DNA of 64,000 bases from Escherichia coli (lineage in GTDB: Bacteria > Pseudomonadota > Gammaproteobacteria > Enterobacterales > Enterobacteriaceae), in assembly GCF_003018235.1 (NCBI RefSeq), contig NZ_CP027437.1; one strand, 5' to 3'. Every line of letters starts with the position of its first letter. The first letter of the stretch is position 1. Made by a program: the position numbers and the translations under genes. The notes under the pieces were generated by a model, which was not told the origin of the DNA, did no database searches, and saw only the letters and a program-made list of their open reading frames with translations. Of this stretch, positions 18 to 21,042 are shown in pieces.

Positions 18-521
18 TCATGATTCGATGATTTTCAGAAACGGGTTAGTGGCTTTCTTCTGCCCCGCCAGGCCAATCAGACGCTGGCGGCTGCTGGGGT
101 CGAGTCCGAGCATTGCCCCCGTGCTGCTCATCTCGGACTCCTGTTCTTTTTTGGCGGTCAGCTCCGGGTTTTTGACCATACCGCCCATTGCACCGGTGAT
201 GGTGTTGCCCTGGCTGGCAATATTCTTCACGGCACGTCGCCAGAACTCATAGGCCACGCACCACCGCTCAAGTACCGCCAGGTCAGTCACGCACAACAGG
301 CCCTGACCGCAGAGTTCTTTGGTTGTCAGTTGCCACATGATCGTGGCGAGAGGGAGATCTTCTTCAGCGAACCACTCCGGTGGCTCAACACCTTTGATGG
401 GCGTAAAAACAGGTTCATCTTTGTTCAGGGCTCGCTTGCCGGGGTTTCCGGCCAGCGCCTTGCGCGCCGTTGGCTTGGGGCGACGCCCGGAACGCCCCGC
501 CGTTCCAGCCATATGCGGCAC
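18..521 (-). CDS. phage terminase small subunit (P27-type, by recall)
   Basis: 167-aa ORF immediately downstream of an HNH endonuclease gene in the late operon; family assignment from memory of similar proteins. Confidence 0.5.
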   Translation of the reverse strand: MPHMAGTAGRSGRRPKPTARKALAGNPGKRALNKDEPVFTPIKGVEPPEWFAEEDLPLATIMWQLTTKELCGQGLLCVTDLAVLERWCVAYEFWRRAVKNIASQGNTITGAMGGMVKNPELTAKKEQESEMSSTGAMLGLDPSSRQRLIGLAGQKKATNPFLKIIES

Positions 522-637: not shown

Positions 638-988
638 TTACTTCAGCCATTCACGGGCCGTCTTCGCCTTGTGGCACGGCCAGCACAGACTCTGCAGATT
701 ACTGTCGGCATCAGTGCCGCCATGTGCTTTAGGGATGATGTGGTCAACGGTTTTCGCCTCACGCACCACACCGGCACGCAGACATAACTGACACAGGCCT
801 TTGTCACGCTTCAGGACACGCACGCGGATAACATCCCACTTCGAACCATAACCGCGCTGATGACGAGATTGTCCTGGCTTGTATTGCTTCCAGCCTTCGC
901 TTTTATGGCTTTCACAATAGCCTGACGGGTCAGTAGTGGTATTGCGGCAACCGCGAACGCGGCAGGCTTTTGGTGTTCGTGGCGGCAT
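638..988 (-). CDS. phage HNH endonuclease
   Basis: 116-aa product with CxxC ... DHIIP ... N ... CxxCH pattern typical of HNH nucleases; usual position next to terminase. Confidence 0.7.
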   Translation of the reverse strand: MPPRTPKACRVRGCRNTTTDPSGYCESHKSEGWKQYKPGQSRHQRGYGSKWDVIRVRVLKRDKGLCQLCLRAGVVREAKTVDHIIPKAHGGTDADSNLQSLCWPCHKAKTAREWLK

Positions 989-1605: not shown

Positions 1606-1881
1606 TCACTTTGAGCCTGATTCACTTCTACCTGACCGGCTCGCCTCTATCCTTCTGATCCCCGCTTTATCCAGATTGCACTGCCCTAGCGCCGACAACA
1701 GACTGACATTCAAATCTAGACTACCCGCATAAGTCAGCGGTTCAGAAATGGCTGGTTGCGGGGTTTCAGCGGTCAGACTCGCCGGTAACGGTATAGCCGG
1801 AACTGGCACGTAAACTGTCCGCGAACTTTCGCAACCGGTCAGCAGCGGCAGCAGGCACAGGGCGTACAGCACAATCATCAT
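1606..1881 (-). CDS. Rz1-like outer-membrane spanin lipoprotein (overlapping Rz in another frame)
   Basis: Internal start MMIVLYALCLLPLLTGC gives signal peptide plus lipobox LTGC, followed by a proline-rich segment; overlaps 3' end of the Rz-like gene out of frame. Confidence 0.55.
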   Translation of the reverse strand: MMIVLYALCLLPLLTGCESSRTVYVPVPAIPLPASLTAETPQPAISEPLTYAGSLDLNVSLLSALGQCNLDKAGIRRIEASRSGRSESGSK

Positions 1882-2158
1882 CCGCAACAGCCACTTTGAT
1901 ATCAGCCTGGGTTCTCTGTGACTCCAGTGCGATCTGCTGTTTTGCATGCTGGTTAGCCTCCAGAACTGTATTGACGATTTGCAGTGATTGCAGGACGTTA
2001 TTGGTAATAGCGGTTGCCGATTCGGCATTTTGTACAGCCTCATCAGCACGTTTCTTTTCGCGCTGGTATTTGCTGTGGTAGTGGTTAGCTGACCAGACGA
2101 GAGAACCGAATAAAGTCAGGAGGAAAGCAGAAATAACCAGCTTATAGCGAAGTTTCAT
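1766..2158 (-). CDS. Rz-like inner-membrane spanin
   Basis: N-terminal TM segment followed by predicted coiled coil, directly downstream of the endolysin; track ORF starts at TTG 2191, ATG at 2158 preferred. Confidence 0.6.
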   Translation of the reverse strand: MKLRYKLVISAFLLTLFGSLVWSANHYHSKYQREKKRADEAVQNAESATAITNNVLQSLQIVNTVLEANQHAKQQIALESQRTQADIKVAVADDDCAVRPVPAAAADRLRKFADSLRASSGYTVTGESDR

Positions 2159-2618
2159 TAACCACCCCGCCAGCTTCTTTGAATTTGGCAATCAGACTAT
2201 CGATCTTGTGTTCATACTGACCGTAGCCAGCACCGGGCAATGAGGCCCAAATATTGCTGCAACGATCAATAGCCTGACGAATATCACCCCGATCAATCAG
2301 CGGCAGCGCGCCGCGTTCTTTAATCTGCTGTAACGCCACCGCATCCTGGCTTTTCGGGGAGAAATCTTTCAGTCCAAGCTGTTTACGGTAGGCGTCCCAC
2401 CATTTCGACAGCAGTTGATAACGCCCGGCGGCGGTGGATTTCAGTTTCGGGTTAAGCGTAACCAGCTTACGTGGATGATCGGAGTAATCAGTAAGCAGTT
2501 CGCCACCAACGATAACGTCATAACCATGATTTCTGGTCTTCTGCCATCCGTTATCAGTTCCTTCTGACCACGCCAGCATATCGAGGAAGGCTTTACGCTG
2601 AGGATTAAGGTTTTGCAT
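2142..2618 (-). CDS. R: endolysin, lambda R-type lytic transglycosylase
   Basis: 158-aa product near-identical over most of its length to recalled lambda R (QRKAFLDMLAWSEGTDNG...GDIRQAIDRCSNIWASLPGAGYGQ). Confidence 0.9.
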   Translation of the reverse strand: MQNLNPQRKAFLDMLAWSEGTDNGWQKTRNHGYDVIVGGELLTDYSDHPRKLVTLNPKLKSTAAGRYQLLSKWWDAYRKQLGLKDFSPKSQDAVALQQIKERGALPLIDRGDIRQAIDRCSNIWASLPGAGYGQYEHKIDSLIAKFKEAGGVVNETSL

Positions 2619-2922
2619 TTTTCACCCCTGTCAGTCGTTCCCAGAAGTAAGTCAGCGCAACTGAACCCATTGCACCGCTGATCCCTGCTGTGGCGAGAAT
2701 CATGTAAATGCTAAATCCGCTTTCGATACTTATCAGGCCACCAATAACACCGGTAAAACCCGATACCACTATCTGAGCCAGAGCATTAATCCAGCTCCAT
2801 GTTGCTTTGCTCTGCTTCACATCAATCAGGTAACGGACAAGCCCGCCCCAGCACGCGAAGATCAGCAGAACGAGCCAGGACATCCCGGCAATGCTCTCTT
2901 TTTCGTGCATATGAATAGCCAT
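2605..2922 (-). CDS. holin (not lambda S family)
   Basis: About 105 aa with hydrophobic TM segments, dual-Met N-terminus MAIHMHEK, immediately upstream of and overlapping the endolysin gene. Confidence 0.55.
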   Translation of the reverse strand: MAIHMHEKESIAGMSWLVLLIFACWGGLVRYLIDVKQSKATWSWINALAQIVVSGFTGVIGGLISIESGFSIYMILATAGISGAMGSVALTYFWERLTGVKNAKP

Positions 2923-2951
2923 GATTTTGCCGCCGACGGATGATCGGGACT

Positions 2952-3449
2952 CTAAATGATAGGGAACAGACTCACGGGGTAATTTAACGACAAAGCACGG
3001 AGTTGAAGATCCCCACAAGCCTGGAATAAAAAAGCCAGCGACAGGCTGGCAATGTGAGGGTAACGCAAAGTGCTTAGAAACAAAAAAAGGCCGCCATCGG
3101 CGACCTTCGAGGTATCTAGCGTGCTGGATACTTTCAGCTTCGCCTTCAATTCAGCGTTGATTTCTTTCAGGCGATCAACATCGTTTTTAAGTTTTTCAAT
3201 GTCTTGCCCTTTATTATCAAGGTCGCGCTGAAGACCTTTAATAATTTCTGTTTGGGCCGCCTGTACTTCTCGTGTCGTCTGGAGAGACTTATCAATATCA
3301 TCAACTTGGTTAATCAAGCGTGTACCGAAAAAGCCTACAACTAACATAGTTATCCCAACCATAAAGTTGAGAACCCAGACTTTTGTTCCGGAAGCAGTGT
3401 TTGGAGTTTCGTCGATAAAGTGCACCTTATGCCAGTTAAAGTTACCCAA
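2952..3449 (-). CDS. hypothetical membrane/coiled-coil protein; 3' part of ORF probably non-coding
   Basis: TTG-initiated track ORF; internal ATG precedes a TM segment and coiled coil; C-terminal about 45 codons overlie two hairpin+T-tract terminators. Confidence 0.25.
   Translation of the reverse strand: MGNFNWHKVHFIDETPNTASGTKVWVLNFMVGITMLVVGFFGTRLINQVDDIDKSLQTTREVQAAQTEIIKGLQRDLDNKGQDIEKLKNDVDRLKEINAELKAKLKVSSTLDTSKVADGGLFLFLSTLRYPHIASLSLAFLFQACGDLQLRALSLNYPVSLFPII
3030..3107 (-). terminator. two tandem rho-independent terminators in the Q-to-holin interval (tR'-like)
   Basis: On minus strand: hairpin GCCAGCCTGTCGCTGGC followed by TTTTTTATT, and hairpin GGTCGCCGATGGCGGCC followed by TTTTTTTGTTT. 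Confidence 0.45.
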
Positions 3450-3908: not shown

Positions 3909-4598
3909 TCAGTTCGGTTTTGCAAGACTTACGTGCAAACTTGTCGCCTTTTGTTGTGAACGTGATCGCGTTACTGAGATAAGCGCACCGCTATCGAGTC
4001 GCATAAAGCAGCTACGCATTGCCAACCAGTGAGGCAGGTATGTCTCTGTCCAGGTGGATTTCGCCACGCCAACCAGTTCCGCCAGCTTCTGGTATTCGTA
4101 GGCATCTTTCCCGACCAACCCTGCTTTGACATCCTGCGCTGCCAGCCATATCAGCTTCTTCAGGCGCTCCATGGTCTTGCCTGCCACCCTCTTCGCGCCG
4201 AGATACCCCCTGAATTCAGACCACGCCCACTGGGTGATCGCCACCTGGTATTCAAAGCTGATGTTTTCACTGTAACTCCACAGCAACCACGCTTTCTGAT
4301 GTTCTTCGAGAGACAGAACCGCGCGGCGCCATGAAGATGTTGAGAACTCAACCTGGCTGACCAGTGCAATGGATGAACCTTTTGCGTACGACTGCTTACC
4401 GGAAATCGGCGGATTATCCAGCGTAATCATCTTGCCCGTTACCTCATCCAGAATGCGCGGCTTCTTTCGTTTATATGTACCAGTATCAAATTGTGCATGC
4501 TCCAGCCAGGCTTCAAGCTGGCCTTTCGTTGCTCCGCTCAAATCAGCAGTAGCCACAATGAGTTGCTCGCGGACATACTGTAAATATTGGGTATTCAT
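3909..4598 (-). CDS. putative late-gene antiterminator Q-like protein
   Basis: 229-aa ORF occupying the Q position (downstream of rusA-ylcG, upstream of lysis genes); start overlaps ylcG stop (ATGA); family assignment tentative. Confidence 0.45.
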   Translation of the reverse strand: MNTQYLQYVREQLIVATADLSGATKGQLEAWLEHAQFDTGTYKRKKPRILDEVTGKMITLDNPPISGKQSYAKGSSIALVSQVEFSTSSWRRAVLSLEEHQKAWLLWSYSENISFEYQVAITQWAWSEFRGYLGAKRVAGKTMERLKKLIWLAAQDVKAGLVGKDAYEYQKLAELVGVAKSTWTETYLPHWLAMRSCFMRLDSGALISVTRSRSQQKATSLHVSLAKPN

Positions 4599-4735
4599 GC
4601 GGCAGCTCCTTTCAGTGTTTTGGCGTAATTCTTCAGTATCCGGTAATCGGTCAAAACAGAACCGGGGAAACGATATAAGCGCAGGCGCATCCAGCGGTGG
4701 CGAAGACGTTCTGCCATATAAGACTCAAACATCAT
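4595..4735 (-). CDS. ylcG: small DUF3950-type protein YlcG
   Basis: 46-codon ORF ([46 protein letters not shown]) coupled by ATGA overlaps to rusA and Q; matches recalled K-12 YlcG. Confidence 0.6.
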
Positions 4736-5094
4736 TCATTCCCCAGTTCGGTGATGGTCAGCTCCAGCTTCCCACCTTTGGTAACGGGCATCTTCACAAC
4801 ACGGTAATCAACGACCTGAACATCATCCAGCCAGAAACCTGCTTTGGTGAGTGCGTCAAAAGCGGCTTTTTGCAGATTATCCAGGTCACGGCGACGGCGA
4901 TCCGGCATGTGGCACTCAATACGGATTTTCACAGGCATAGCCAGGCCGATATCCAGCATTGCGTTTTTAATGATTTGGGCGACGTTATCGCGGTATGCCT
5001 GCCCCTCTGCGCTGACGTGCGTGCGCCCGCGATTATGGCGGTAATAGCGATTATTGCTCGGAGGCCAGGGTAATGTGATGCTGTAGGTATTCAC
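4732..5094 (-). CDS. rusA: RusA Holliday junction resolvase
   Basis: 120-aa product near-identical to recalled K-12 RusA ([38 protein letters not shown]...). Confidence 0.9.
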
Positions 5095-6191: not shown

Positions 6192-6974
6192 TTAGGCGCA
6201 ATACAAAGGATCATTAGCAGCTCTAATACCGCCCTGAATCGCAAGCCCTGTATGGCAATTTGACATTGAGCATGATTGCCATCTGTGCAAGGGACCTCCA
6301 TTAATCGAAACTTCCAGCAGATCTTTATCTCCTTTCATCCTGACCCCTTCATACAACATATCAAGACGCTCAACAATCAATCCTGTTGGAGGTTCCATTT
6401 TTAGAACGAGGGCAAACTCTCCTGGCCCACGTCGTATTGTTATACGCGGGCCGGTACACTCCACATCCCAATTGTCTGATTTAGCTTTCCATTCATTTTC
6501 ATCTATCAGTAAAGTCTCCTTACCAATAGAATTACAGAAAATTCCTGATAAAAGCATCGGTCCATGTGGTATGGGTGAAGGTTTCACAGAAAGAATGGGT
6601 TGTTCGTTGACTACAATCAAATTTTGACAGTTATGAAACGTCACTCCTGCAAATTTTACTGTTATAGGCTCATTATGAAAATCAAACATTTCATTTGCAA
6701 AACCAGCCTGTAAGCACTTGGGATTTCTGTCAGCTATTTCCACTGTCTGTGCTGAAAGTCTACCACGAGCTCTTTTTTGATTGCATTGGGAGCAAAGAAG
6801 TGTCATTCCATTCGGATCATGTACTTTGGCATCAACGAAGTCAGGTTTAAAATGCTCATAATCATAAAATCCAAATCCACAAATTACACAGCCAAAGCCG
6901 CACCTTTGCCTTATCTGACGTTTTATTGTCTCAGGTATTCTTCTTGAGAGCCCGTGTTTATTAATATTGTCCAT
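6192..6974 (-). CDS. HNH-domain protein with uncharacterised C-terminal domain (prophage cargo)
   Basis: 260 aa; N-terminal CGFGCVICG...YEHFKP...NGMTLLCSQCNQK fits HNH nuclease motif; about 160-aa C-terminal region unrecognised; AT-rich codon usage. Confidence 0.5.
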   Translation of the reverse strand: MDNINKHGLSRRIPETIKRQIRQRCGFGCVICGFGFYDYEHFKPDFVDAKVHDPNGMTLLCSQCNQKRARGRLSAQTVEIADRNPKCLQAGFANEMFDFHNEPITVKFAGVTFHNCQNLIVVNEQPILSVKPSPIPHGPMLLSGIFCNSIGKETLLIDENEWKAKSDNWDVECTGPRITIRRGPGEFALVLKMEPPTGLIVERLDMLYEGVRMKGDKDLLEVSINGGPLHRWQSCSMSNCHTGLAIQGGIRAANDPLYCA

Positions 6975-7583: not shown

Positions 7584-9110
7584 TCAAAAATAAACCTCAC
7601 CATCAACCATATATTTGAGAGTACTTATCGCCTGCCGGGCGGATATTGTTTTCATTAAAGGATAGTGTTTAAAAACAATGCCATTCATAAAATAGATATC
7701 ACAGGTTTTATTATCTGTATTGATTATGATTTTTTCGAATGTTTTATAGGCAAGTGTACGACATAGCTCTCGCCCATTTTTACTGGTTAAGTCAATAGCA
7801 TGAAAATCACCAAGTGAGCTCACCGCTTTACTCTTCAAAGTTTTTAATGATACAGAAGCCCTTCGTAATTCCTTATCTAATACTCTGATTTTTTCTGCTA
7901 TAGCGGTAACTTCAGGCGCAACAGATAATGCAGCAATTAAATTATTAATTTTCATATGGAGCTCAATAATTCTCAACTCTAAAGTTTCATTAGCATCTTT
8001 CTTGTTTTCAACTGGTTGGATTTTACTACAATTAAAAAGCAACTCATTAATGATATTATAATCAACCAAATCTCTCTTTATTGATGGCCTGCCACATCGA
8101 TGCAGTCTTCTCATCGGACAAACATAATAGCCATGCAAACTTCCAGATACCGCATGAACAATCATGGTATTACCACAAGCCTCGCACTTCATAACTGTTC
8201 GAAGTAGATTTATCAACATAGGATTTTTGCTACTATTGCTAATACCAAAAGGTGCCAACCGAATTTCCTGCACAGCGTAAAACAAATCATCTGATATGAC
8301 TCTGGGATAATAGCCAGCGATTTCACTTATTCCTTTACCTCTTGCACGATATGAAGGTACGCATATACCTATCAGAGCTTTATTCGCTAATAATTTTTCA
8401 ATTACAGAAGGCCCCCATGCACTTTCTTTTCCTGAGAAATTCTTTACAGCATGATCATTTAAATACTTGGCTATTGCATTCAATGAGCGCCTTTCCATCC
8501 TGAGTTTAAAAATTAGCTCAATAGTTTTCACCCTGTCGGGGTCTGGAACAAAAGCCGTTCTTTTGTCATCTAAGGAGAGCCATCTCGGACAAGACGCCGT
8601 CATAATCGTACCTGATTCCAGTGCATCCTGCCGTTTTTTCTTCCATGATAATTTAACCCGACTTGACTTTATCTCGCTTTCTTCATTTGCCCTTTGTGCT
8701 ATAAGTATGGCTTTTATTAATGAATATGGCTCATTCAAAGAGTCAATATTATAGACTGTATTGTCGCAAAGAGTTATAACATCAATACCGTGATTCAAAA
8801 TCAATTTCAGACGTTCAATCGCTTCACCGACTTTTTCTCTTGAAAGTCTGTCCAGACTTTCAACTAACAATGTAGTTCCTGGCAATATATAACCATGCTC
8901 TATAGCATCTAAAAATTCCGAAAAAGCTCCTGATTGTGCATGCTTTCCTTTGAATGCACTTAATCCTAAATCTTCATATGTTATGGTATCAAGATAATAA
9001 TCACTATTTACCTTTAACCATTCAGCAATAAGTCTTCTCTGTCGGTTTAATGAGTCGCCAGACATCTGACCTGGTGATGAAAATCGCATATATGCTATGG
9101 CTTTTTTCAT
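7584..9110 (-). CDS. ybcK: large serine recombinase YbcK
   Basis: 508 aa; N-terminal resolvase-type catalytic domain (YMRFSSPGQ...SLNRQ), recombinase domain and Cys-rich zinc ribbon; length and position match K-12 DLP12 ybcK. Confidence 0.85.
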   Translation of the reverse strand: MKKAIAYMRFSSPGQMSGDSLNRQRRLIAEWLKVNSDYYLDTITYEDLGLSAFKGKHAQSGAFSEFLDAIEHGYILPGTTLLVESLDRLSREKVGEAIERLKLILNHGIDVITLCDNTVYNIDSLNEPYSLIKAILIAQRANEESEIKSSRVKLSWKKKRQDALESGTIMTASCPRWLSLDDKRTAFVPDPDRVKTIELIFKLRMERRSLNAIAKYLNDHAVKNFSGKESAWGPSVIEKLLANKALIGICVPSYRARGKGISEIAGYYPRVISDDLFYAVQEIRLAPFGISNSSKNPMLINLLRTVMKCEACGNTMIVHAVSGSLHGYYVCPMRRLHRCGRPSIKRDLVDYNIINELLFNCSKIQPVENKKDANETLELRIIELHMKINNLIAALSVAPEVTAIAEKIRVLDKELRRASVSLKTLKSKAVSSLGDFHAIDLTSKNGRELCRTLAYKTFEKIIINTDNKTCDIYFMNGIVFKHYPLMKTISARQAISTLKYMVDGEVYF

Positions 9111-9764: not shown

Positions 9765-10067
9765 TCATTGTGTACCCATTGATGTTCTTTTATATACCCT
9801 CAATACCCGTTTCATCGCGGCACTCTGGCGACACTCCTTAAAAATCAGATTCGTGCTCACCTTTCCTTCCCGTTCTTCTCTGGTAGCGAACCGGTAATAC
9901 ACCGTTCGCCAGACCTTACCATCAACGACCAGGATTCCTGCCCGCGCCATTTTAGCCGCAGCCTGATTTATGCTGGTTACGGTTGCGCCTGTTACCGCGG
10001 CAACGTCCTGTGCACAGAAGCTCTTATGCGTCCCCAGGTAATGAATAATTGCCTCTTTGCCCGTCAT
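9765..10067 (-). CDS. ren: Ren (Rex-exclusion relief protein)
   Basis: 100-aa product closely matches recalled lambda Ren (MTGKEAIIHYLGTH...FATREEREGK). Confidence 0.8.
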   Translation of the reverse strand: MTGKEAIIHYLGTHKSFCAQDVAAVTGATVTSINQAAAKMARAGILVVDGKVWRTVYYRFATREEREGKVSTNLIFKECRQSAAMKRVLRVYKRTSMGTQ

Positions 10068-10765
10068 ACACTTGCTCCTTTCAGTCCGAACTTAGCTTTG
10101 ATTTCTGCGATCTTCGCCAGAGCCTGTGCACGATTTAGAGGTCTACCGCCCATGACAGGAAGTTGTTTTACTGGTTCAGGTATCGCCTCACCACGGTTAA
10201 TTCGCGCGGTCATACAGGACAGTTCATCGGCAGCCTTGCGCCGTAATTCCGCGTCAGTCAACGCATTGGCCCGCATGTTCTGATACAGGTTGGTAACCAG
10301 CCAGTAGTGCGCGTTTGATTTCCACGGATAAGACTCTGCATCCGGATACAGACCACGCTTCCGGCAATACTCGTAAACCATATCAACCAGCTCGCTGACG
10401 TTTGGCAGCCCGGCGGTAACGGATGCTTCTTCCCGGCACCATGCAACAAACTGCCCGGGTGATGGCAGAAATGGTCTATTCTGCCGACGGGCAACACGCA
10501 TTCCGGCGCTCACCTGTTCCATCGTGGTGATCCCGTTTTCCCGGAAAGCCAGAACCCACTGGCGGCGGATTTCGTTCAGTTCGTTCTGGTCACGATTAGC
10601 CAGGCTCGCCGGGAAAGTTGCCAGTAACTGGCTGAATACACCGTTGATTATCTGCGCTACCTGCTGTACCTGCGGCTTTTCGTCGTACTGTTCCGGCATG
10701 TTGTTGGCGATCCGACGCATCTGCTCACGGTCAAAGTTAATCATCTGTGCGGCGATGTTTTTCAT
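10064..10765 (-). CDS. P: replication protein P (DnaB loader)
   Basis: 233-aa product near-identical to recalled lambda P. Confidence 0.9.
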   Translation of the reverse strand: MKNIAAQMINFDREQMRRIANNMPEQYDEKPQVQQVAQIINGVFSQLLATFPASLANRDQNELNEIRRQWVLAFRENGITTMEQVSAGMRVARRQNRPFLPSPGQFVAWCREEASVTAGLPNVSELVDMVYEYCRKRGLYPDAESYPWKSNAHYWLVTNLYQNMRANALTDAELRRKAADELSCMTARINRGEAIPEPVKQLPVMGGRPLNRAQALAKIAEIKAKFGLKGASV

Positions 10766-11781
10766 AGATCCACCCCGTAAATCCAGTCTGTGTTTGTCAG
10801 GTCGAGTTTTGGTTTGCTAGCTGTCACGCCTGCCTGTTGCTTGTTACGGTTGATTTCGAGTTGGGTCCACTTGTCGCGGAGTTTGGCCGGACTTAGCACG
10901 TTACCGGACCAGAAGTTGTCCTGGCATGCCCAGCGGAACAGCACGCACATGTCGCGGTGGTTACGTCCGTCACGTTCACGCATCAGGCGGATATCGTTAG
11001 CCCACCCTGCAAAATTCGGTTTTCTGGCTGATGGCGCGATGGTCTTCACCATGTCAAACATCCACTCTGCGGCGGTCAGGTCTTCTGCTGTCCCCCACTT
11101 GCTGCCGCTCTGAATTGCAGCATCCGGTTTCACCACAGGAAGATCGTTTTCTGGTTGGTCAGAGGATTCGCCAGAATTCTCGGACGAAAAAGGTTTTATA
11201 TTGTCTTTTGTTAGTTTGTCTTTTGTGTTTACCTGATTCGGGTAAACGCCTTTACCTGATTTGGGTAAACTTTTTTTACCTGATTCAGGTAAATTTACCT
11301 CTTTCAGGTAAACTTTATTTTTCTTACCTGATTCGGGTAATGTTGACCATTCACTGACCACATTATTAATGCCGGTATTCCGCCCGCTCTGAATAAAAAT
11401 CCCACGCTTTACCAGAACACTTTTTGCAGCAGAACACTTGTGCGGCAATATCCCGGTTAATTCGGAAAGTTGCTCGTTGCTAACCCAATCCAGTTTTTTA
11501 TTAAAGCCATATGTTTTGCGCATGACAGCCAGAAAGACCAGAAGCTGGTGCTGTGTTAATCCGGCCAGCATCACAGCTTCCAGCAACTCATTTGCAATGC
11601 GCGTATAACCATCATCGAGATCTGCCACGCGCGGCTCCTTTTGTGCCGCATCCGGCACTGGAAAATTGAATATCTCAGCAGTGTTTGCCATAATTCCTCC
11701 CGCAATGAGTGTGTTACGATTTGCACCTGAAAGTCGGTTCTGTTCCAGCAGACCGGCTTTCGCCATTTCTGAACCTGTCAT
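10762..11781 (-). CDS. O: replication initiator O-like protein (iteron-binding)
   Basis: 339-aa ORF upstream of P containing an internal array of 17-bp iterons; N-terminal region resembles lambda O (ADLDDGY...); C-terminal acidic linker. Confidence 0.8.
   Translation of the reverse strand: MTGSEMAKAGLLEQNRLSGANRNTLIAGGIMANTAEIFNFPVPDAAQKEPRVADLDDGYTRIANELLEAVMLAGLTQHQLLVFLAVMRKTYGFNKKLDWVSNEQLSELTGILPHKCSAAKSVLVKRGIFIQSGRNTGINNVVSEWSTLPESGKKNKVYLKEVNLPESGKKSLPKSGKGVYPNQVNTKDKLTKDNIKPFSSENSGESSDQPENDLPVVKPDAAIQSGSKWGTAEDLTAAEWMFDMVKTIAPSARKPNFAGWANDIRLMRERDGRNHRDMCVLFRWACQDNFWSGNVLSPAKLRDKWTQLEINRNKQQAGVTASKPKLDLTNTDWIYGVDL
11180..11340. repeat. phage replication origin: five 17-bp iterons (TTACC-N7-GGTAA) plus adjacent AT-rich tract, inside O
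   Basis: Repeats TTACCTGATTCGGGTAA (x2), TTACCTGATTTGGGTAA, TTACCTGATTCAGGTAA, TTACCTCTTTCAGGTAA at roughly 18-29 bp spacing; AT-rich block on the O-downstream side. Confidence 0.75.
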
Positions 11782-12617: not shown

Positions 12618-12721
12618 AACAACCTCCGTGGTTAATTTGAATCAAGATTAAAACCATGGTTGTTTTTAGTCAACAACCATTTTCGTTTGATGAAATAAAA
12701 CCTTGGTTGTACATTTGGACT
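12618..12721. promoter_or_regulatory. OR-like operator/promoter region between cro and cI
   Basis: Three palindromic sites built on AACCA/TGGTT half-sites (AACCATGGTT; ACAACCATT; AACCTTGGTTGT) in a 100-bp divergent intergenic region. Confidence 0.45.
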
Positions 12722-13411
12722 ATGAAAACAACACTCTCAGAAAGACTTAAAGAAGCCAGATTAGCGCGAGGCCTTACACAAAAGGCGCTTGGGGATTTGG
12801 TCGGGGTTAGCCAAGCAGCTATTCAGAAAATCGAAACAGGGAAAGCTAACCAAACAACTAAAATCGTGGAGATCGCGAACGCTTTGGGTGTGCGCGCAGA
12901 ATGGTTATCTTCTGGCGTTGGAAATATGTCAGACAGTACAGTGCAACCAATACAAACAACTGTCAGCCATTCCAAATACTTTAAGATTGACGTTCTTGAT
13001 ATCGAAGTGAGTGCCGGGCCGGGAGTCATCAACCGTGAGTTTGTAGAAGTTCTACGCTCGGTTGAGTACTCGTTTGACGATGCTCGTCACATGTTCGATG
13101 GTAGGAAGGCAGAAAATATCCGCATCATTAACGTACGCGGTGACAGCATGTCAGGAACGATTGAACCTGGTGATCTTCTATTCGTTGATATCACGGTTAA
13201 ATCTTTCGACGGTGATGGTATCTATGCGTTTCTGTACGACGACACAGCCCATGTAAAGCGCCTGCAAATGATGAAGGATAAGCTGCTGGTTATCTCTGAT
13301 AACAAAAGCTACTCACCGTGGGACCCGATCGAGAAAGATGAGATGAACCGGGTATTTATCTTCGGGAAAGTTATTGGGAGCATGCCGCAGACGTATAGGA
13401 AGCATGGATAG
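12722..13411 (+). CDS. cI: CI-type prophage repressor (HTH plus S24 LexA-like peptidase domain)
   Basis: N-terminal HTH (LTQKALGDLVGVSQAAIQKIE), Ala-Gly cleavage site, GDSM serine motif and downstream Lys; ATG with almost no leader. Confidence 0.8.
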   Translation: MKTTLSERLKEARLARGLTQKALGDLVGVSQAAIQKIETGKANQTTKIVEIANALGVRAEWLSSGVGNMSDSTVQPIQTTVSHSKYFKIDVLDIEVSAGPGVINREFVEVLRSVEYSFDDARHMFDGRKAENIRIINVRGDSMSGTIEPGDLLFVDITVKSFDGDGIYAFLYDDTAHVKRLQMMKDKLLVISDNKSYSPWDPIEKDEMNRVFIFGKVIGSMPQTYRKHG

Positions 13412-13491
13412 TACCAATTAAAAATTATCAACCGGGCATTGTGCTCATTCAGTAAAACAACTTAATTATTCATTTTAGAATGGAGAACTTA

Positions 13492-14553
13492 ATGGATACT
13501 TTAAAATATGAGAAATTCTCTGATTTTGATCACAATGACCCATTTTTTGACTCTTTAAAAAAAGATTATAAAGAGTTTCCTCTTTGGTTAGAAAAAAAAG
13601 CCAGAGAAGGAGAATCAGCTTATGTGCTCTATGATGACAAGCATAAAATCGAAGGTTTTATGTATCTAAAAGAAAATGATGATGCAAATGACATTAATCC
13701 AGCGCTCCCACCAGGACGTCATCTAAAGATAGGAACATTCAAATTTGAATCTAAAGGCACCCTTCGCGGACAACGATTTCTAAAAAAAGCGTTTGACCAT
13801 GCATTTTCATCAAAATCTGATGATATTTATGTTACTGTTTTCGACAAACACGTCCATCTAATAAAACTTTTCCAAACGTACGGATTTTACATTCATGGTG
13901 AAAAAGAAACACATAACGGGAAAGAGTTTGTATATGCGAGGTCTTTGCATGAGCCTTATGGTGATATTTTATTAGATTACCCTCGAATAATGACATCAAG
14001 GGCCAACAAATATTTACTGGCGATTTATCCCGAATATCACACTAGACTATTCCCTGATTCAAAACTTGTAAATGAATCACCAGATATTGTCAAAGATATA
14101 TCCCATGCTAACAGCATTCATAAAATTTACATATGTGGAATGCGTTCTGTGATGGGAATGAAAAGAGGAGATATCATTGTCATCTATAGAACCGGAGACA
14201 AAAAAGGGCCAGCTCGCTATCGTTCTGTAGCCAGTACATTATGTGTAGTTGAGAGCGTAAAAAATATTTCTGAATTTTTAAGCGAAGATAGTTTTGTAGA
14301 CTATTGTATTCGTTTTAGCGTATTTTCTGAAGATGAACTCAGAAAAATCTATAAAGAACGTCGATACCCTTTCATTATAAGATTCACATACAATCTGTCT
14401 TTGCCAAAGAGACCCAATCGTGCTATTTTAATAGATCATGTGGGGCTAAATGGTTCGCGTGCATTCCGATGGAGTCACTTTAAACTCACAAATGAGCAGT
14501 TCTTAAAGATCATCGAGTTAGGCAAGATAAATGAAAGTTTTATTATCCATTAA
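13492..14553 (+). CDS. hypothetical protein, first gene of rexAB-position operon
   Basis: 353 aa from ATG with GGAG 6 nt upstream (track ORF starts 13480); AT-rich; no family recognised; C-terminal half has PUA-like-looking motifs (GDIIVIY). Confidence 0.4.
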   Translation: MDTLKYEKFSDFDHNDPFFDSLKKDYKEFPLWLEKKAREGESAYVLYDDKHKIEGFMYLKENDDANDINPALPPGRHLKIGTFKFESKGTLRGQRFLKKAFDHAFSSKSDDIYVTVFDKHVHLIKLFQTYGFYIHGEKETHNGKEFVYARSLHEPYGDILLDYPRIMTSRANKYLLAIYPEYHTRLFPDSKLVNESPDIVKDISHANSIHKIYICGMRSVMGMKRGDIIVIYRTGDKKGPARYRSVASTLCVVESVKNISEFLSEDSFVDYCIRFSVFSEDELRKIYKERRYPFIIRFTYNLSLPKRPNRAILIDHVGLNGSRAFRWSHFKLTNEQFLKIIELGKINESFIIH

Positions 14554-14908
14554 GCCTGAGTTTGCAGAAAAAATATTGAACGGAACAAAGCGGTTCGAGT
14601 TTCGTAAAGGTATATTCAAAAATCCGCAAATTAGCACCGTTGTTATTTATGCCACGATGCCATTAGGTAAAGTTGTTGGTCAATTCCGTATTGAATCAAT
14701 ACTAAGTGACGAACCGGAATCTCTTTGGAAAAAGACGGAAAAACACGCAGGTATTTCTAAGCAATTTTATGACTCATATTATTCAGGTAGAGAAAAGGCC
14801 TACGCAATAAAAATTGGTGAAGTGGAAAGATATAAAGAACCAATTCCTATCTCTGCTCTAGGTAGTAATATTAAGCCACCACAATCATATCTTTACCTAC
14901 CTGCGTAA
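14531..14908 (+). CDS. ASCH/PUA-like domain protein
   Basis: 125 aa; MKVLLSIKPEFAEKILNGTKRFEFRK N-terminus resembles ASCH-domain consensus; overlaps upstream gene by 23 nt (translational coupling). Confidence 0.5.
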   Translation: MKVLLSIKPEFAEKILNGTKRFEFRKGIFKNPQISTVVIYATMPLGKVVGQFRIESILSDEPESLWKKTEKHAGISKQFYDSYYSGREKAYAIKIGEVERYKEPIPISALGSNIKPPQSYLYLPA

Positions 14909-15670: not shown

Positions 15671-15967
15671 ATGAACGCTTATTACATTCAGGATCGTCTT
15701 GAGGCTCAGAGCTGGGCGCGTCACTACCAGCAGATCGCCCGTGAAGAGAAAGAGGCAGAACTGGCAGACGACATGGAAAAAGGCCTGCCCCAGCACCTGT
15801 TTGAATCGCTATGCATCGATCATTTGCAACGCCACGGGGCCAGCAAAAAAGCCATTACCCGTGCGTTTGATGACGATGTTGAGTTTCAGGAGCGCATGGC
15901 AGAACACATCCAGTACATGGTTGAAACCATTGCTCACCACCAGGTTGATATTGATTCAGAGGTATAA
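15671..15967 (+). CDS. gam: Gam (RecBCD inhibitor), short form
   Basis: 98-aa product near-identical to recalled lambda GamS ([21 protein letters not shown]...). Confidence 0.85.
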
Positions 15968-15972
15968 AACGG

Positions 15973-16758
15973 ATGAGTACAGCACTCGCAACGCTGGCAG
16001 GGAAGCTGGCTGAACGTGTCGGCATGGATTCTGTCGACCCACAGGAACTGATCACCACTCTTCGCCAGACGGCATTTAAAGGTGATGCCAGCGATGCGCA
16101 GTTCATCGCATTACTGATCGTTGCCAACCAGTACGGCCTTAATCCATGGACGAAAGAAATTTACGCCTTTCCTGATAAGCAGAATGGCATCGTTCCGGTG
16201 GTGGGCGTTGATGGCTGGTCCCGCATCATCAATGAAAACCAGCAGTTTGATGGCATGGACTTTGAGCAGGACAACGAATCCTGTACATGCCGGATTTACC
16301 GCAAGGACCGCAATCATCCGATCTGCGTTACCGAGTGGATGGATGAATGCCGCCGCGAACCATTCAAAACCCGCGAAGGCAGAGAAATTACGGGGCCGTG
16401 GCAGTCGCATCCCAAACGGATGTTACGGCATAAAGCCATGATTCAGTGTGCCCGTCTGGCCTTCGGATTTGCTGGTATCTATGACAAGGATGAAGCCGAG
16501 CGCATTGTCGAAAATACTGCATACACTGCAGAACGTCAGCCGGAACGCGACATCACTCCGGTTAACGATGAAACCATGCAGGAGATTAACACTCTGCTGA
16601 TCGCCCTGGATAAAACATGGGATGACGACTTATTGCCGCTCTGTTCCCAGATATTTCGCCGCGACATTCGTGCATCGTCAGAACTGACACAGGCCGAAGC
16701 AGTGAAAGCTCTTGGATTCCTGAAACAGAAAGCCACTGAGCAGAAGGTGGCAGCATGA
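15973..16758 (+). CDS. bet: Bet (Red-beta single-strand annealing protein)
   Basis: 261-aa product essentially identical to recalled lambda Bet. Confidence 0.95.
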
Positions 16759-17435
16759 CACCGTACATTATCCTGCAGCGTACCGGGATCGACGTGAGAG
16801 CTGTCGAACAGGGGGATGATGCATGGCACAAATTACGGCTCGGCGTCATCACCGCTTCAGAAGTTCACAACGTGATAGCAAAGCCCCGCTCAGGAAAGAA
16901 GTGGCCTGACATGAAAATGTCCTACTTCCACACCCTGCTGGCTGAGGTTTGCACCGGTGTGGCTCCGGAAGTTAATGCTAAGGCGCTGGCCTGGGGAAAA
17001 CAGTACGAGAACGACGCCAGAACCCTGTTTGAATTCACTTCCGGCGTGAATGTTACTGAATCCCCGATCATCTATCGCGACGAAAGTATGCGCACCGCCT
17101 GCTCTCCAGATGGTTTATGCAGTGACGGCAACGGCCTTGAACTGAAATGCCCGTTTACCTCCCGGGATTTCATGAAATTCCGGCTCGGTGGTTTTGAGGC
17201 AATAAAATCGGCTTACATGGCCCAGGTGCAGTACAGCATGTGGGTGACGCGAAAAGATGCCTGGTACTTTGCCAACTATGACCCGCGCATGAAGCGTGAA
17301 GGCCTGCATTATGTCGTGATTGAGCGGGATGAAAAGTACATAGCGAGTTTTGACGAGATGGTGCCGGAGTTCATCGAAAAAATGGACGAGGCACTGGCTG
17401 AAATTGGTTTTGTATTTGGGGAGCAATGGCGATGA
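16755..17435 (+). CDS. exo: Exo (Red-alpha 5'-3' exonuclease)
   Basis: 226-aa product near-identical to recalled lambda Exo. Confidence 0.95.
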
Positions 17436-18434: not shown

Positions 18435-18713
18435 ATGTTCAGAATCATTTTTCCTAACACCTGGTACGTCGACCACCACGGCACTCCCTGCAAAATCCTG
18501 CGTTCTACCCACAACAAAGTTCACTACATCCGAAAAGGCAGAACATGTATCGCCAGCATGTTCCGCTTTAATCATGACTTTGAACCTGTGAATAAAGCTG
18601 ATGCAGATCGGATAGCAGAAGAGATCGAAACGGCAGAACACATTAAGAAGTTACGTGACATGCGTTCAAAAAGCAGAGGTAACCATGGAATCATACAGCC
18701 TCACACTCGATGA
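18435..18713 (+). CDS. hypothetical protein (Ea8.5 position)
   Basis: 92-aa ORF between orf73-like gene and xis; no motif recognised. Confidence 0.3.
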   Translation: MFRIIFPNTWYVDHHGTPCKILRSTHNKVHYIRKGRTCIASMFRFNHDFEPVNKADADRIAEEIETAEHIKKLRDMRSKSRGNHGIIQPHTR

Positions 18714-19056
18714 GGCCTGTCAGTTTCTTAAGATATCCAGACCAACCGCCACCAACTGGATACGAACAGGCCGCCTACAGGCAACACGTAAAGATCCAAC
18801 CAAGTCAAAATCTCCTTACCTCACAACACGGCAAGCCTGCATTGCGGCGCTTCAGTCTCCGCTGCATACTGTCCAGGTGAGCGCGGGTGATGGCATAACA
18901 GAGGAAAGAAAATGTCACTCTTCCGCAGAAATGAAATATGGTATGCCTCGTATTCGCTCCCGGGCGGGAAACGAATTAAGGAATCTCTTGGCACAAAGGA
19001 CAAGCGGCAAGCTCAGGAGTTGCACGACAAGCGAAAAGCAGAACTCTGGCGAGTAG
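18685..19056 (+). CDS. xis: putative excisionase
   Basis: ATG with GAGGT RBS within GTG-initiated track ORF 18655..19056; winged-helix-like N-terminus ([26 protein letters not shown]); 3' end overlaps int in another frame. Confidence 0.4.
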
Positions 19057-20075
19057 AAAAGCTAGGGGATTTACCTGATGTCACTTTTGAAGAGGCCTGC
19101 CTAAGATGGCTTGAGGAAAAAGCTGATAAAAAATCTCTCGATTCAGATAAAAGCCGGATTGAGTTCTGGCTTGAACATTTTGAGGGTATAAGGCTTAAAG
19201 ATATCTCGGAGGCAAAGATTTACTCTGCTGTAAGCAGAATGCATAACAGAAAGACGAAAGAAATATGGAAACAGAAAGTTCAGGCCGCCATCAGGAAAGG
19301 TAAAGAACCGCCTGTTTATGAACCAAAGCCAGTATCAACTCAGACAAAGGCAAAGCATCTTGCCATGATAAAGGCCATTCTCCGTGCTGCAGAACGCGAC
19401 TGGAAGTGGCTGGAAAAAGCGCCTGTCATCAAGATACCAGCGGTCAGAAACAAGCGAGTCAGATGGCTGGAAAAGGAGGAAGCAAAACGCCTTATTGATG
19501 AGTGCCCCGAACCACTGAAATCTGTCGTCAAGTTTGCGCTGGCAACTGGTCTGAGAAAGTCGAACATCATAAATCTGGAATGGCAACAAATCGACATGCA
19601 GCGACGAGTTGCCTGGGTGAATCCAGAAGAGAGCAAATCAAACCGCGCCATTGGTGTGGCGCTGAACGATACCGCCTGTAAAGTGTTGCGTGATCAAATA
19701 GGCAAGCATCACAAATGGGTGTTTGTACATACCAAGGCGGCTAAGCGAGCAGATGGAACATCAACGCCTGCGGTCAGGAAGATGCGCATCGACAGCAAGA
19801 CATCATGGCTATCAGCTTGTCGTCGTGCAGGAATTGAAGATTTCCGTTTCCATGACCTCAGACACACCTGGGCAAGCTGGCTGATTCAGTCAGGCGTCCC
19901 ATTATCAGTGCTTCAGGAAATGGGCGGATGGGAGTCCATAGAAATGGTTCGTAGGTATGCTCACCTTGCGCCTAATCATTTGACAGAGCATGCGAGGAAA
20001 ATAGACGACATTTTTGGTGATAATGTCCCAAATATGTCCCACTCTGGAATTATGGAGGATATAAAGAAGGCGTAA
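18912..20075 (+). CDS. intD: tyrosine integrase IntD
   Basis: 387-aa product with C-terminal catalytic R...HDLRHT...Y motifs; matches K-12 DLP12 IntD length and position next to argU. Confidence 0.9.
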
Positions 20076-20090
20076 CTGATTGAATTGTAA

Positions 20091-20167
20091 TGGCGCGCCC
20101 TGCAGGATTCGAACCTGCGGCCCACGACTTAGAAGGTCGTTGCTCTATCCAACTGAGCTAAGGGCGC
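20091..20167 (-). tRNA. argU: tRNA-Arg (anticodon UCU), argU; prophage attachment site
   Basis: Reverse complement reads GCGCCCTTAGCTCAGTTGGATAGAGCAACGACCTTCTAAGTCGTGGGCCGCAGGTTCGAATCCTGCAGGGCGCGCCA, a cloverleaf with UCU anticodon. Confidence 0.9.
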
Positions 20168-20198
20168 GTTGATACCGCAATGCGGTGTAATCGCGTGA

Positions 20199-20226
20199 AT
20201 TATACGGTCAACCCTTGCTGAGTCAA
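20199..20226 (-). promoter_or_regulatory. argU promoter
   Basis: On minus strand TTGACT-N16-TATAAT about 30 nt upstream of the tRNA 5' end. Confidence 0.55.
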
Positions 20227-20409
20227 TGGCTTTTGATCTGGTTGCTGAACAAGTGAACGACCGCGTCTGATTTTCTGATTTATTTCGCTATAGCGGCAAA
20301 CAAACGTACACCGCTGCGCGTCTGAATCAAGAAAACCCGTATTTTCATGTATCAAAGTACAATTTCCCGCCCTAACGGAAAATTGTCCGATCCTATGAGA
20401 CTGGTAACT

Positions 20410-21042
20410 ATGAAACCAACGTCGGTGATCATTATGGATACTCATCCTATCATCAGAATGTCTATTGAAGTTCTGTTGCAAAAAAACAGTGAATTGCAAA
20501 TTGTCCTGAAAACGGATGATTATCGCATAACCATCGATTATCTCCGAACCCGTCCTGTTGATTTAATCATTATGGATATAGACTTGCCCGGAACAGACGG
20601 TTTTACCTTCCTGAAAAGGATCAAACAAATCCAGAGCACAGTGAAAGTATTATTTTTATCATCGAAATCAGAATGCTTTTATGCTGGCAGAGCGATACAA
20701 GCTGGTGCTAACGGTTTTGTCAGTAAATGCAATGATCAGAATGATATTTTTCATGCCGTTCAGATGATCCTCTCCGGATACACTTTTTTTCCCAGCGAAA
20801 CGCTCAACTATATAAAAAGCAATAAATGTAGCACGAATAGTTCAACGATCACTGTGCTATCTAATCGTGAAGTGACCATATTACGTTATCTGGTCAGCGG
20901 ATTATCTAATAAAGAAATTGCCGATAAGTTATTACTTAGCAATAAAACAGTTAGTGCGCATAAATCTAATATTTATGGCAAGCTAGGATTGCATTCAATT
21001 GTAGAGCTTATCGACTACGCCAAATTATATGAATTAATATAA
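20410..21042 (+). CDS. fimZ: FimZ response-regulator (LuxR-type) fimbrial regulator
   Basis: 210 aa from internal ATG (MKPTSVIIMDTHPIIRM...); receiver domain plus LuxR HTH; matches recalled FimZ. Confidence 0.9.
   Translation: MKPTSVIIMDTHPIIRMSIEVLLQKNSELQIVLKTDDYRITIDYLRTRPVDLIIMDIDLPGTDGFTFLKRIKQIQSTVKVLFLSSKSECFYAGRAIQAGANGFVSKCNDQNDIFHAVQMILSGYTFFPSETLNYIKSNKCSTNSSTITVLSNREVTILRYLVSGLSNKEIADKLLLSNKTVSAHKSNIYGKLGLHSIVELIDYAKLYELI

Follow-up and report, generated by a model that had tools for sequence, protein, structure and literature searches.

Junction of an IntD-type integrase gene with argU in Escherichia coli: the very probable attL of a DLP12-related prophage

The integrase gene and the adjoining argU

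In the stretch of Escherichia coli DNA analysed here (64,000 nt in all, hereafter the window), ARAGORN finds a single tRNA gene, argU, a minus-strand tRNA-Arg with the anticodon tct at 20091-20167. Its 3′ end faces a phage integrase gene across a short spacer, while its 5′ side is followed by its predicted promoter and by bacterial fimbrial genes. The features around this junction are as follows.

18685-19056, plus strand: xis, an intact excisionase ORF of 123 aa (PHROG 2907; Pfam HTH_17)
18912-20075, plus strand: int, a tyrosine integrase of IntD type, 387 aa (Pfam, PHROG, identity with K-12 IntD)
19896-19901, plus strand: third copy of GTCCCA, candidate arm-type site
20007-20038, minus strand: weak hairpin followed by GUCUAUUUU, candidate argU terminator (RNA fold)
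20025-20030 and 20036-20041, plus strand: two GTCCCA direct repeats, candidate arm-type Int-binding sites
20076-20088: phage-derived part of the int-tRNA spacer, the same as in attP and different from attB
20089-20135: att identity block (core), 47 bp, exact in attL, attP, attB and attR
20091-20167, minus strand: argU, tRNA-Arg(UCU) (ARAGORN; Rfam RF00005; 100% identity to K-12 argU)
20124-20128 and 20136-20140: anticodon-stem arms flanking the anticodon loop
20129-20135: anticodon loop CTTCTAA, probable 7-bp overlap region as judged from the start of the block
20131-20133, minus strand: argU anticodon
20136-20167, minus strand: 5′ 32 nt of argU, bacterial DNA only
20168-20192, minus strand: predicted argU 5′ leader of 24-25 nt (from the sequence, with a putative start site)
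directly after the -10 hexamer, minus strand: G+C-rich stretch TCACGCG (from the sequence)
20199-20204, minus strand: -10 hexamer TATAAT of the predicted argU promoter (promoter scan)
20221-20226, minus strand: -35 hexamer TTGACT of the same promoter (promoter scan; identical in M217, a strain with the empty site, and in K-12)
20410-21042, plus strand: fimZ, bacterial flank (RefSeq annotation under the match; sequence)

The identity of the tRNA gene is clear. ARAGORN gives a cloverleaf with the anticodon tct at position 35, the Rfam tRNA model RF00005 is matched with 72.1 bits (E 5e-15; gathering score 29), and the gene agrees with the argU of E. coli K-12 MG1655 at 77 of 77 nucleotides, K-12 being the strain in which argU (dnaY) was first defined as a functional gene. 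The gene is flanked by fimZ and the sfm genes, the same position as in K-12, and every base of 20048-20306 is shared with that strain, relative to which the orientation of the window is reversed. fimZ is divergent from argU, with 183 bp between its start and the -35 hexamer. Rightward from argU, the genes include fimZ, the sfm fimbrial genes, folD, cysS and purEK, colinear with Yu5 at 98.5%, and the stretch 18800-21100 matches many complete genomes at 99.9%, in places where intD, tRNA-Arg, fimZ and sfmF are found.

The product of int matches the Phage_integrase family of Pfam (PF00589) with an E value of 5.5e-47 over profile positions 1-171 of 172, and matches PHROG integrase families as well. 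Its motif residues are R215, H314-x-x-R317, W340 and Y349, with R215, H314, R317 and Y349 seen in the strings ATGLR, HDLRH and RRYAH. The protein differs from K-12 IntD at 2 of its 387 residues, the DNA is 99.9-100% identical to int of the phages 2G7b, ev243, Turner and PhiR68_2, and the closest solved relative by sequence is the HP1 integrase; the N-terminus gives a weak match to DUF6538, under the Pfam cut-off. Judged by these matches, int is a lambda/P22-type tyrosine recombinase, IntD. The gene ends with the stop codon TAA at 20073-20075 and is convergent with argU. The original prediction had int reading toward the tRNA and ending 16 nt from it; the orientation stands, but 16 is the difference between the coordinates, and the gap itself is 15 nt (20076-20090).

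The start of int is overlapped by 145 nt, in a different frame, by xis, the product of which matches Pfam HTH_17 as well as the excisionase family PHROG 2907, the latter with an E value of 2e-45 over profile positions 2-117 of 117. Unlike the xis of K-12, which is truncated at the N-terminus, this ORF is intact; in near-identical prophages, RefSeq marks no more than a fragment in the xis region. A 56-aa ORF at 18710-18880 was rejected as a candidate for Xis, being without a family match in Pfam and PHROG, with Xis proper lying in another frame. It is this 56-aa ORF (18710-18880 in window terms), in a different frame from xis, that the record of phage Turner annotates.

The identity block and the probable site of strand exchange

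It had been proposed that the att core lies within the 3′ portion of the tRNA gene, and this is where we found it, as an exact 47-bp block at 20089-20135 that is common to attP, attB and the attR of relatives. On the tRNA strand the block reads CTTCTAAGTCGTGGGCCGCAGGTTCGAATCCTGCAGGGCGCGCCATT and comprises nt 33-77 of argU, so that the 3′ 45 nt of the gene fall within it, plus TT, which are 2 nt of the spacer. It is exact in the attL of the window, in the attP of 2G7b and Turner, in the attB of M217 and in the attR of K-12, Yu5 and the draft genome L020. Downstream of int, both 2G7b and Turner have the 15-nt spacer seen in the window and, after it, 45 nt that match the 3′ part of argU exactly; past the block, the sequence diverges into an arm toward ompT. 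At attR, the arm TTCCTAGAACGACATTTTAAGTC... would be expected just before the 47-bp copy.

When attB (M217), attL (window), attP (2G7b) and attR (K-12 and Yu5) were placed in a five-way alignment, the flanks exchanged partners as the reaction of attB and attP to give attL and attR demands. The other flank of the far-end copy in K-12 is identical to the ompT-side arm of attP, and the RefSeq annotation of K-12 has DLP12 extending from within argU to just before envY. Neither the empty-site strain M217 nor K-12 differs from the window in the sequence of argU, which indicates that the integrated copy restores the gene. The segment 20076-20226 is, in our reading, almost certainly the attL of a DLP12/IntD-family lambdoid prophage integrated in E. 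coli argU, which places the prophage boundary in the window at 20089-20135.

The argU/DLP12 junction seen here is a classical one and already known. The attL of DLP12 in K-12 was described as the argU-intD junction by Lindsey, Mullin and Walker in 1989 (as cited in PMC6379469 and PMC2629481), and a 47-bp repeat of argU at the other end of DLP12 is likewise on record (PMC6379469). That attL shares its 47-bp block and its promoter with the window, besides the identity over 20048-20306 and an Int only two residues apart. The free phages 2G7b (Nesevirus), ev243, Turner, Kati and those of the PhiR series have an int with 99.4-100% DNA identity, and their attP is identical to the window in the int-side arm, the spacer and the 47-bp block, but these are unintegrated genomes where the block is followed by the ompT-side arm, and their late genes are unlike those at the left edge of the window. 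A more distant case is the Salmonella phage epsilon34, which has 43 bp of argU after int and an integrase whose closest relative is the DLP12 Int (PMC2629481). It resembles the window in having a P22/DLP12-type integrase, directly after which comes a block with exactly the sequence of the 3′ part of argU (PMC2629481), and differs in the length of the block (43 bp), in its integrase (about 80% identical at the protein level), in its host and in its virion type. SEN22, a relative of epsilon34 with an argU-type att site, has an int that matches the int of the window at 78% DNA identity.

Integration very probably proceeded as follows. The attP, situated directly after int, contains argU nt 33-77 plus TT as an exact 47-bp copy, and Int would recombine it with the chromosomal 47 bp, strand exchange taking place most probably in the 7-bp anticodon-loop segment between the anticodon-stem arms. 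The bacterial promoter, leader and 5′ 32 nt of the tRNA are thereby joined to the identical 3′ 45 nt supplied by the phage, which carries this gene-restoring part of argU beside int. The mature tRNA sequence is unchanged after integration, the only novelty being the 3′ trailer from 3 nt past the CCA. The displaced bacterial 3′ fragment would end up in attR at the far end of the prophage, which in relatives lies between the phage moron ompT and the chromosomal envY.

HP1 and P22 are the classical cases of anticodon-centred tRNA integration. The position of the exchange inside the 47 bp is beyond what sequence identity can tell, and we place it as probable at the anticodon loop (20129-20135, about 55-60 bp from the stop codon of int) because the block begins at linear tRNA nt 33, the first base of that loop, which is the signature of the anticodon-centred class. 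Such att sites are a class recognised by Islander (PMC4383910), and the window resembles its class 'A' in that the block extends from the anticodon loop as far as the 3′ end, that int lies beside the tRNA gene and converges on it, and that, in relatives, the 3′ fragment of the gene is displaced to the other end (PMC4383910). From where its block begins, we infer that the att site of the window belongs to this class. In attB the loop CTTCTAA lies between the perfect anticodon-stem arms ACGAC and GTCGT, and the other 40 bp of the block probably serve to rebuild argU.

The same junction would be produced by an exchange at the T loop TTCGAAT (20107-20113), which is flanked by perfect T-stem arms. 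This T stem-loop (20102-20118) is as symmetric a crossover candidate as the anticodon site, since GCAGG-TTCGAAT-CCTGC is a perfect inverted repeat entirely within the block in both attP and attB, whereas the anticodon site has an imperfect arm in attP (AGGAA versus ACGAC), and crossovers in the T loop or T stem are also a recognised class (PMC4383910). However, with an exchange at the T loop the phage would have no need of the 22 nt between the anticodon loop and the T stem, and a block whose first base is also that of the anticodon loop is the signature expected of anticodon-centred exchange (PMC4383910). We regard the T loop as an unlikely though credible place for the crossover, and retain the anticodon loop as the probable one.

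Possible binding sites for Int can be proposed on both sides of the core. GTCCCA occurs four times on the plus strand of the 6.2-kb locus at the attP of 2G7b, and none of the four copies is more than about 200 bp from the core; three belong to the int side and the fourth to the ompT side. These repeats, present on both arms of attP, are candidate arm-type Int sites.

The prophage body and its far end

On the phage side of the block, the lambdoid prophage body occupies 1-20088 and continues past the left edge of the window, as delimited from ORFs, Pfam, PADLOC and colinearity with the annotated prophage of Yu5. Its main genes are listed below.

18-521, minus strand: terS, small terminase
638-988, minus strand: HNH endonuclease
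about 1766-3449, minus strand: lysis genes
3909-4598, minus strand: Q
4732-5094, minus strand: rusA
7584-9110, minus strand: ybcK, large serine recombinase
10064-10765, minus strand: repP, colinear with the lambda-type P of Yu5
10762-11781, minus strand: repO, colinear with the lambda-type O of Yu5
12656-13411, plus strand: cI-like repressor
13480-14908, plus strand: PDC-M11 pair, candidate defence system (PADLOC)
15671-17435, plus strand: gam, bet and exo

The prophage appears to be a mosaic, in which a DLP12-like early region is combined with a different late module. DLP12 in K-12 is a remnant of 21.3 kb in which xis and exo are truncated, ren carries an IS3 and nmpC an IS5, and structural genes are almost absent, whereas in the element of the window xis is intact and the lambda-type ORFs of O and P are uninterrupted, and there are a late module of another type (HNH and small terminase) and the PDC-M11 pair. 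It is a relative that has the int/att module of DLP12, and not DLP12 itself. The Yu5 prophage, with late genes of lambda type, also differs from it in the late module, and in the position of the ren annotated in Yu5, next to the replication gene P, the window has an uninterrupted 100-aa ORF (9765-10067). Among complete E. coli genomes, none contains 80% or more of window 1-21000 at a single location, and none of the phage records reaches 80% coverage of window 1-20142. The best overall match is strain LR-71-1. Exact-protein look-ups with the small terminase and Q returned related mosaics only, the closest being L020, which shares 10.3 kb of the prophage at 99.4% and is a deleted, tandem derivative. 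The element is best described as a mosaic lambdoid prophage with an IntD/argU integration module.

Several smaller observations concern the body of the prophage. The PDC-M11 pair, consisting of candidate parts A and B (a 357-aa protein and a 125-aa ASCH-domain protein, with PADLOC E values of 2e-133 and 7e-52), is situated between the cI-like repressor and kil/gam and is missing from the otherwise colinear Yu5 prophage. A 260-aa ORF at 6192-6974 on the minus strand, near ybcK, belongs to PHROG 6544, a family of unknown function, and has a weak HNH similarity; in K-12, Yu5 and LR-71-1, emrE is found just upstream of ybcK. Elsewhere (loci L007-L012), HNH and a Terminase_4-type small terminase accompany genes for an HK97-type head and a contractile tail.

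The far end of the prophage lies beyond the window. No second copy of the tRNA 3′ segment was found within the window with a 40-mer allowing up to 3 mismatches, and blastn-short with a 180-nt query gave only chance matches of 10-15 nt to the window and no second core copy; such a copy is not expected there because the prophage runs off the left edge, in agreement with the original prediction, which placed the copy upstream of the window. Among relatives, a second copy was found in the predicted place, 21.3 kb away in K-12, 48.2 kb away in Yu5, where a full lambda-like prophage ends with it and ompT and envY lie on either side, and 19.6 kb away in L020. In this last genome (GCA_902708725.2, 19700-20570), ompT is followed by the 47-bp core and then by the 3′ end of a second int, 92% identical, an order of genes that, as read here, indicates tandem elements at argU. 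At 1-420 of the same accession, the argU promoter lies about 250 bp from folD, and fimZ and the sfm genes are absent.

Counts over complete E. coli genomes give a current picture of occupancy at this classical argU hotspot. The empty site (envY-argU-fimZ, reconstructed; read directly in M217) is contiguous in 2,518 of 5,426 genomes, the attL as in the window is present in 1,518 of the 5,426, and the matching attR in 1,616 of them. The window's own genome would be expected to carry an attR.

It could still be asked whether the prophage is grounded, its far end having been deleted or rearranged so that it has no attR direct repeat and cannot excise. Relatives at the argU site are often decayed: DLP12 of K-12 is cryptic, the L020 prophage has large deletions, and that of LR-71-1 is broken by IS26, with no second core copy in the 49.5 kb read. 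In the window, however, int and xis are both intact, the ORFs of the lambda-type replication genes O and P are uninterrupted, Q, the lysis genes, HNH and terS are present as well, and the numbers of genomes with attL (1,518) and attR (1,616) are similar, so a grounded prophage seems to us distinctly unlikely. We identify the element as a more complete DLP12 relative that may be able to excise, and not as the remnant known from K-12.

Predicted expression of argU beside the prophage

The importance of the junction is chiefly one of annotation, in that argU is intact and its promoter untouched by the insertion. On the minus strand, the promoter scan finds TTGACT-N16-TATAAT (20226-20199), which the original prediction had called a consensus promoter. 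The site is present and agrees with the sigma-70 consensus at 11/12 positions, although its -35 hexamer matches TTGACA at 5/6 and its spacer is 1 nt under the 17-nt optimum. It is the sole site of at least 11/12 on both strands of the whole window, and the match has no significance by itself because about 0.87 such sites are expected by chance in a random window of matched composition. What leads us to predict that this is the argU promoter is its placement, its strand and its identity with K-12, rather than the hexamers: its -10 hexamer ends 31 nt from the 5′ end of the tRNA, both being on the minus strand, and the scan finds no other promoter-like site within 19900-20500.

A coincidental match, with argU transcribed from elsewhere, would accord with the number of sites being close to the chance level, one per 64 kb. 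This reading is very improbable, however, for a match that has the correct strand, that ends so close before the tRNA as the only promoter-like site of the region, and of which both hexamers are preserved in the more divergent L020 genome although the leader up to the tRNA has changed there. Taking the site as the argU promoter, its retention despite the insertion, as had been suggested, is borne out. Integration leaves it untouched because it lies 64-91 bp past the block on the bacterial side; its sequence is the same in M217 and K-12, and the promoter and 5′ half of the tRNA are the same in lysogens and at the empty site. Directly after the -10 hexamer, the G+C-rich TCACGCG may, from knowledge of stable-RNA promoters, have the role of a stringent-control discriminator. 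Judged from the spacing to the -10 hexamer, transcription would start at G20192 or A20191, and the leader holds the dyad ACCGCA-T-TGCGGT, which forms a small hairpin in the RNA fold.

That the tRNA is phage-borne, carried by the prophage, and not the chromosomal argU can be dismissed: some lambdoid phages carry tRNA-Arg genes and the record of phage Turner annotates a 'tRNA' at this position, but the idea is refuted by the empty-site genomes, about 46% of E. coli genomes having an identical tRNA and promoter beside fimZ without a prophage, and by the attP of the free phages, which has only the 3′ 45 nt of argU and in which ARAGORN finds no tRNA. The Turner record (PP925837.1; L004 3680-3763) has an 84-nt 'tRNA-Pro' annotated over attP, where ARAGORN finds none, and this looks like an annotation artefact from the 45-nt argU fragment in attP.

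Downstream of argU, the phage-derived part of the spacer (20076-20088) forms the new 3′ trailer, starting 3 nt after the CCA. The terminator scan called none downstream of argU, and the RNA fold gave only the weak hairpin with its adjoining GUCUAUUUU, 53-95 nt downstream of the 3′ end of the tRNA, in the coding region of int and overlapping the two neighbouring GTCCCA repeats. Because nothing but this weak hairpin (20007-20038) separates the argU promoter from antisense int, read-through from argU could damp int in the integrated state and, combined with a dependence of int and fimZ on the argU tRNA through their rare codons, could make up a position-dependent regulatory loop between tRNA and integrase, a speculation that we consider improbable. 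Genes near argU have many of the rare codons that its tRNA reads: AGA and AGG together make up 13 of the 33 Arg codons of int, 6 of the 17 of fimZ and 19 of the 33 of ybcK, compared with 3 of the 48 of the sfmD-like usher gene.
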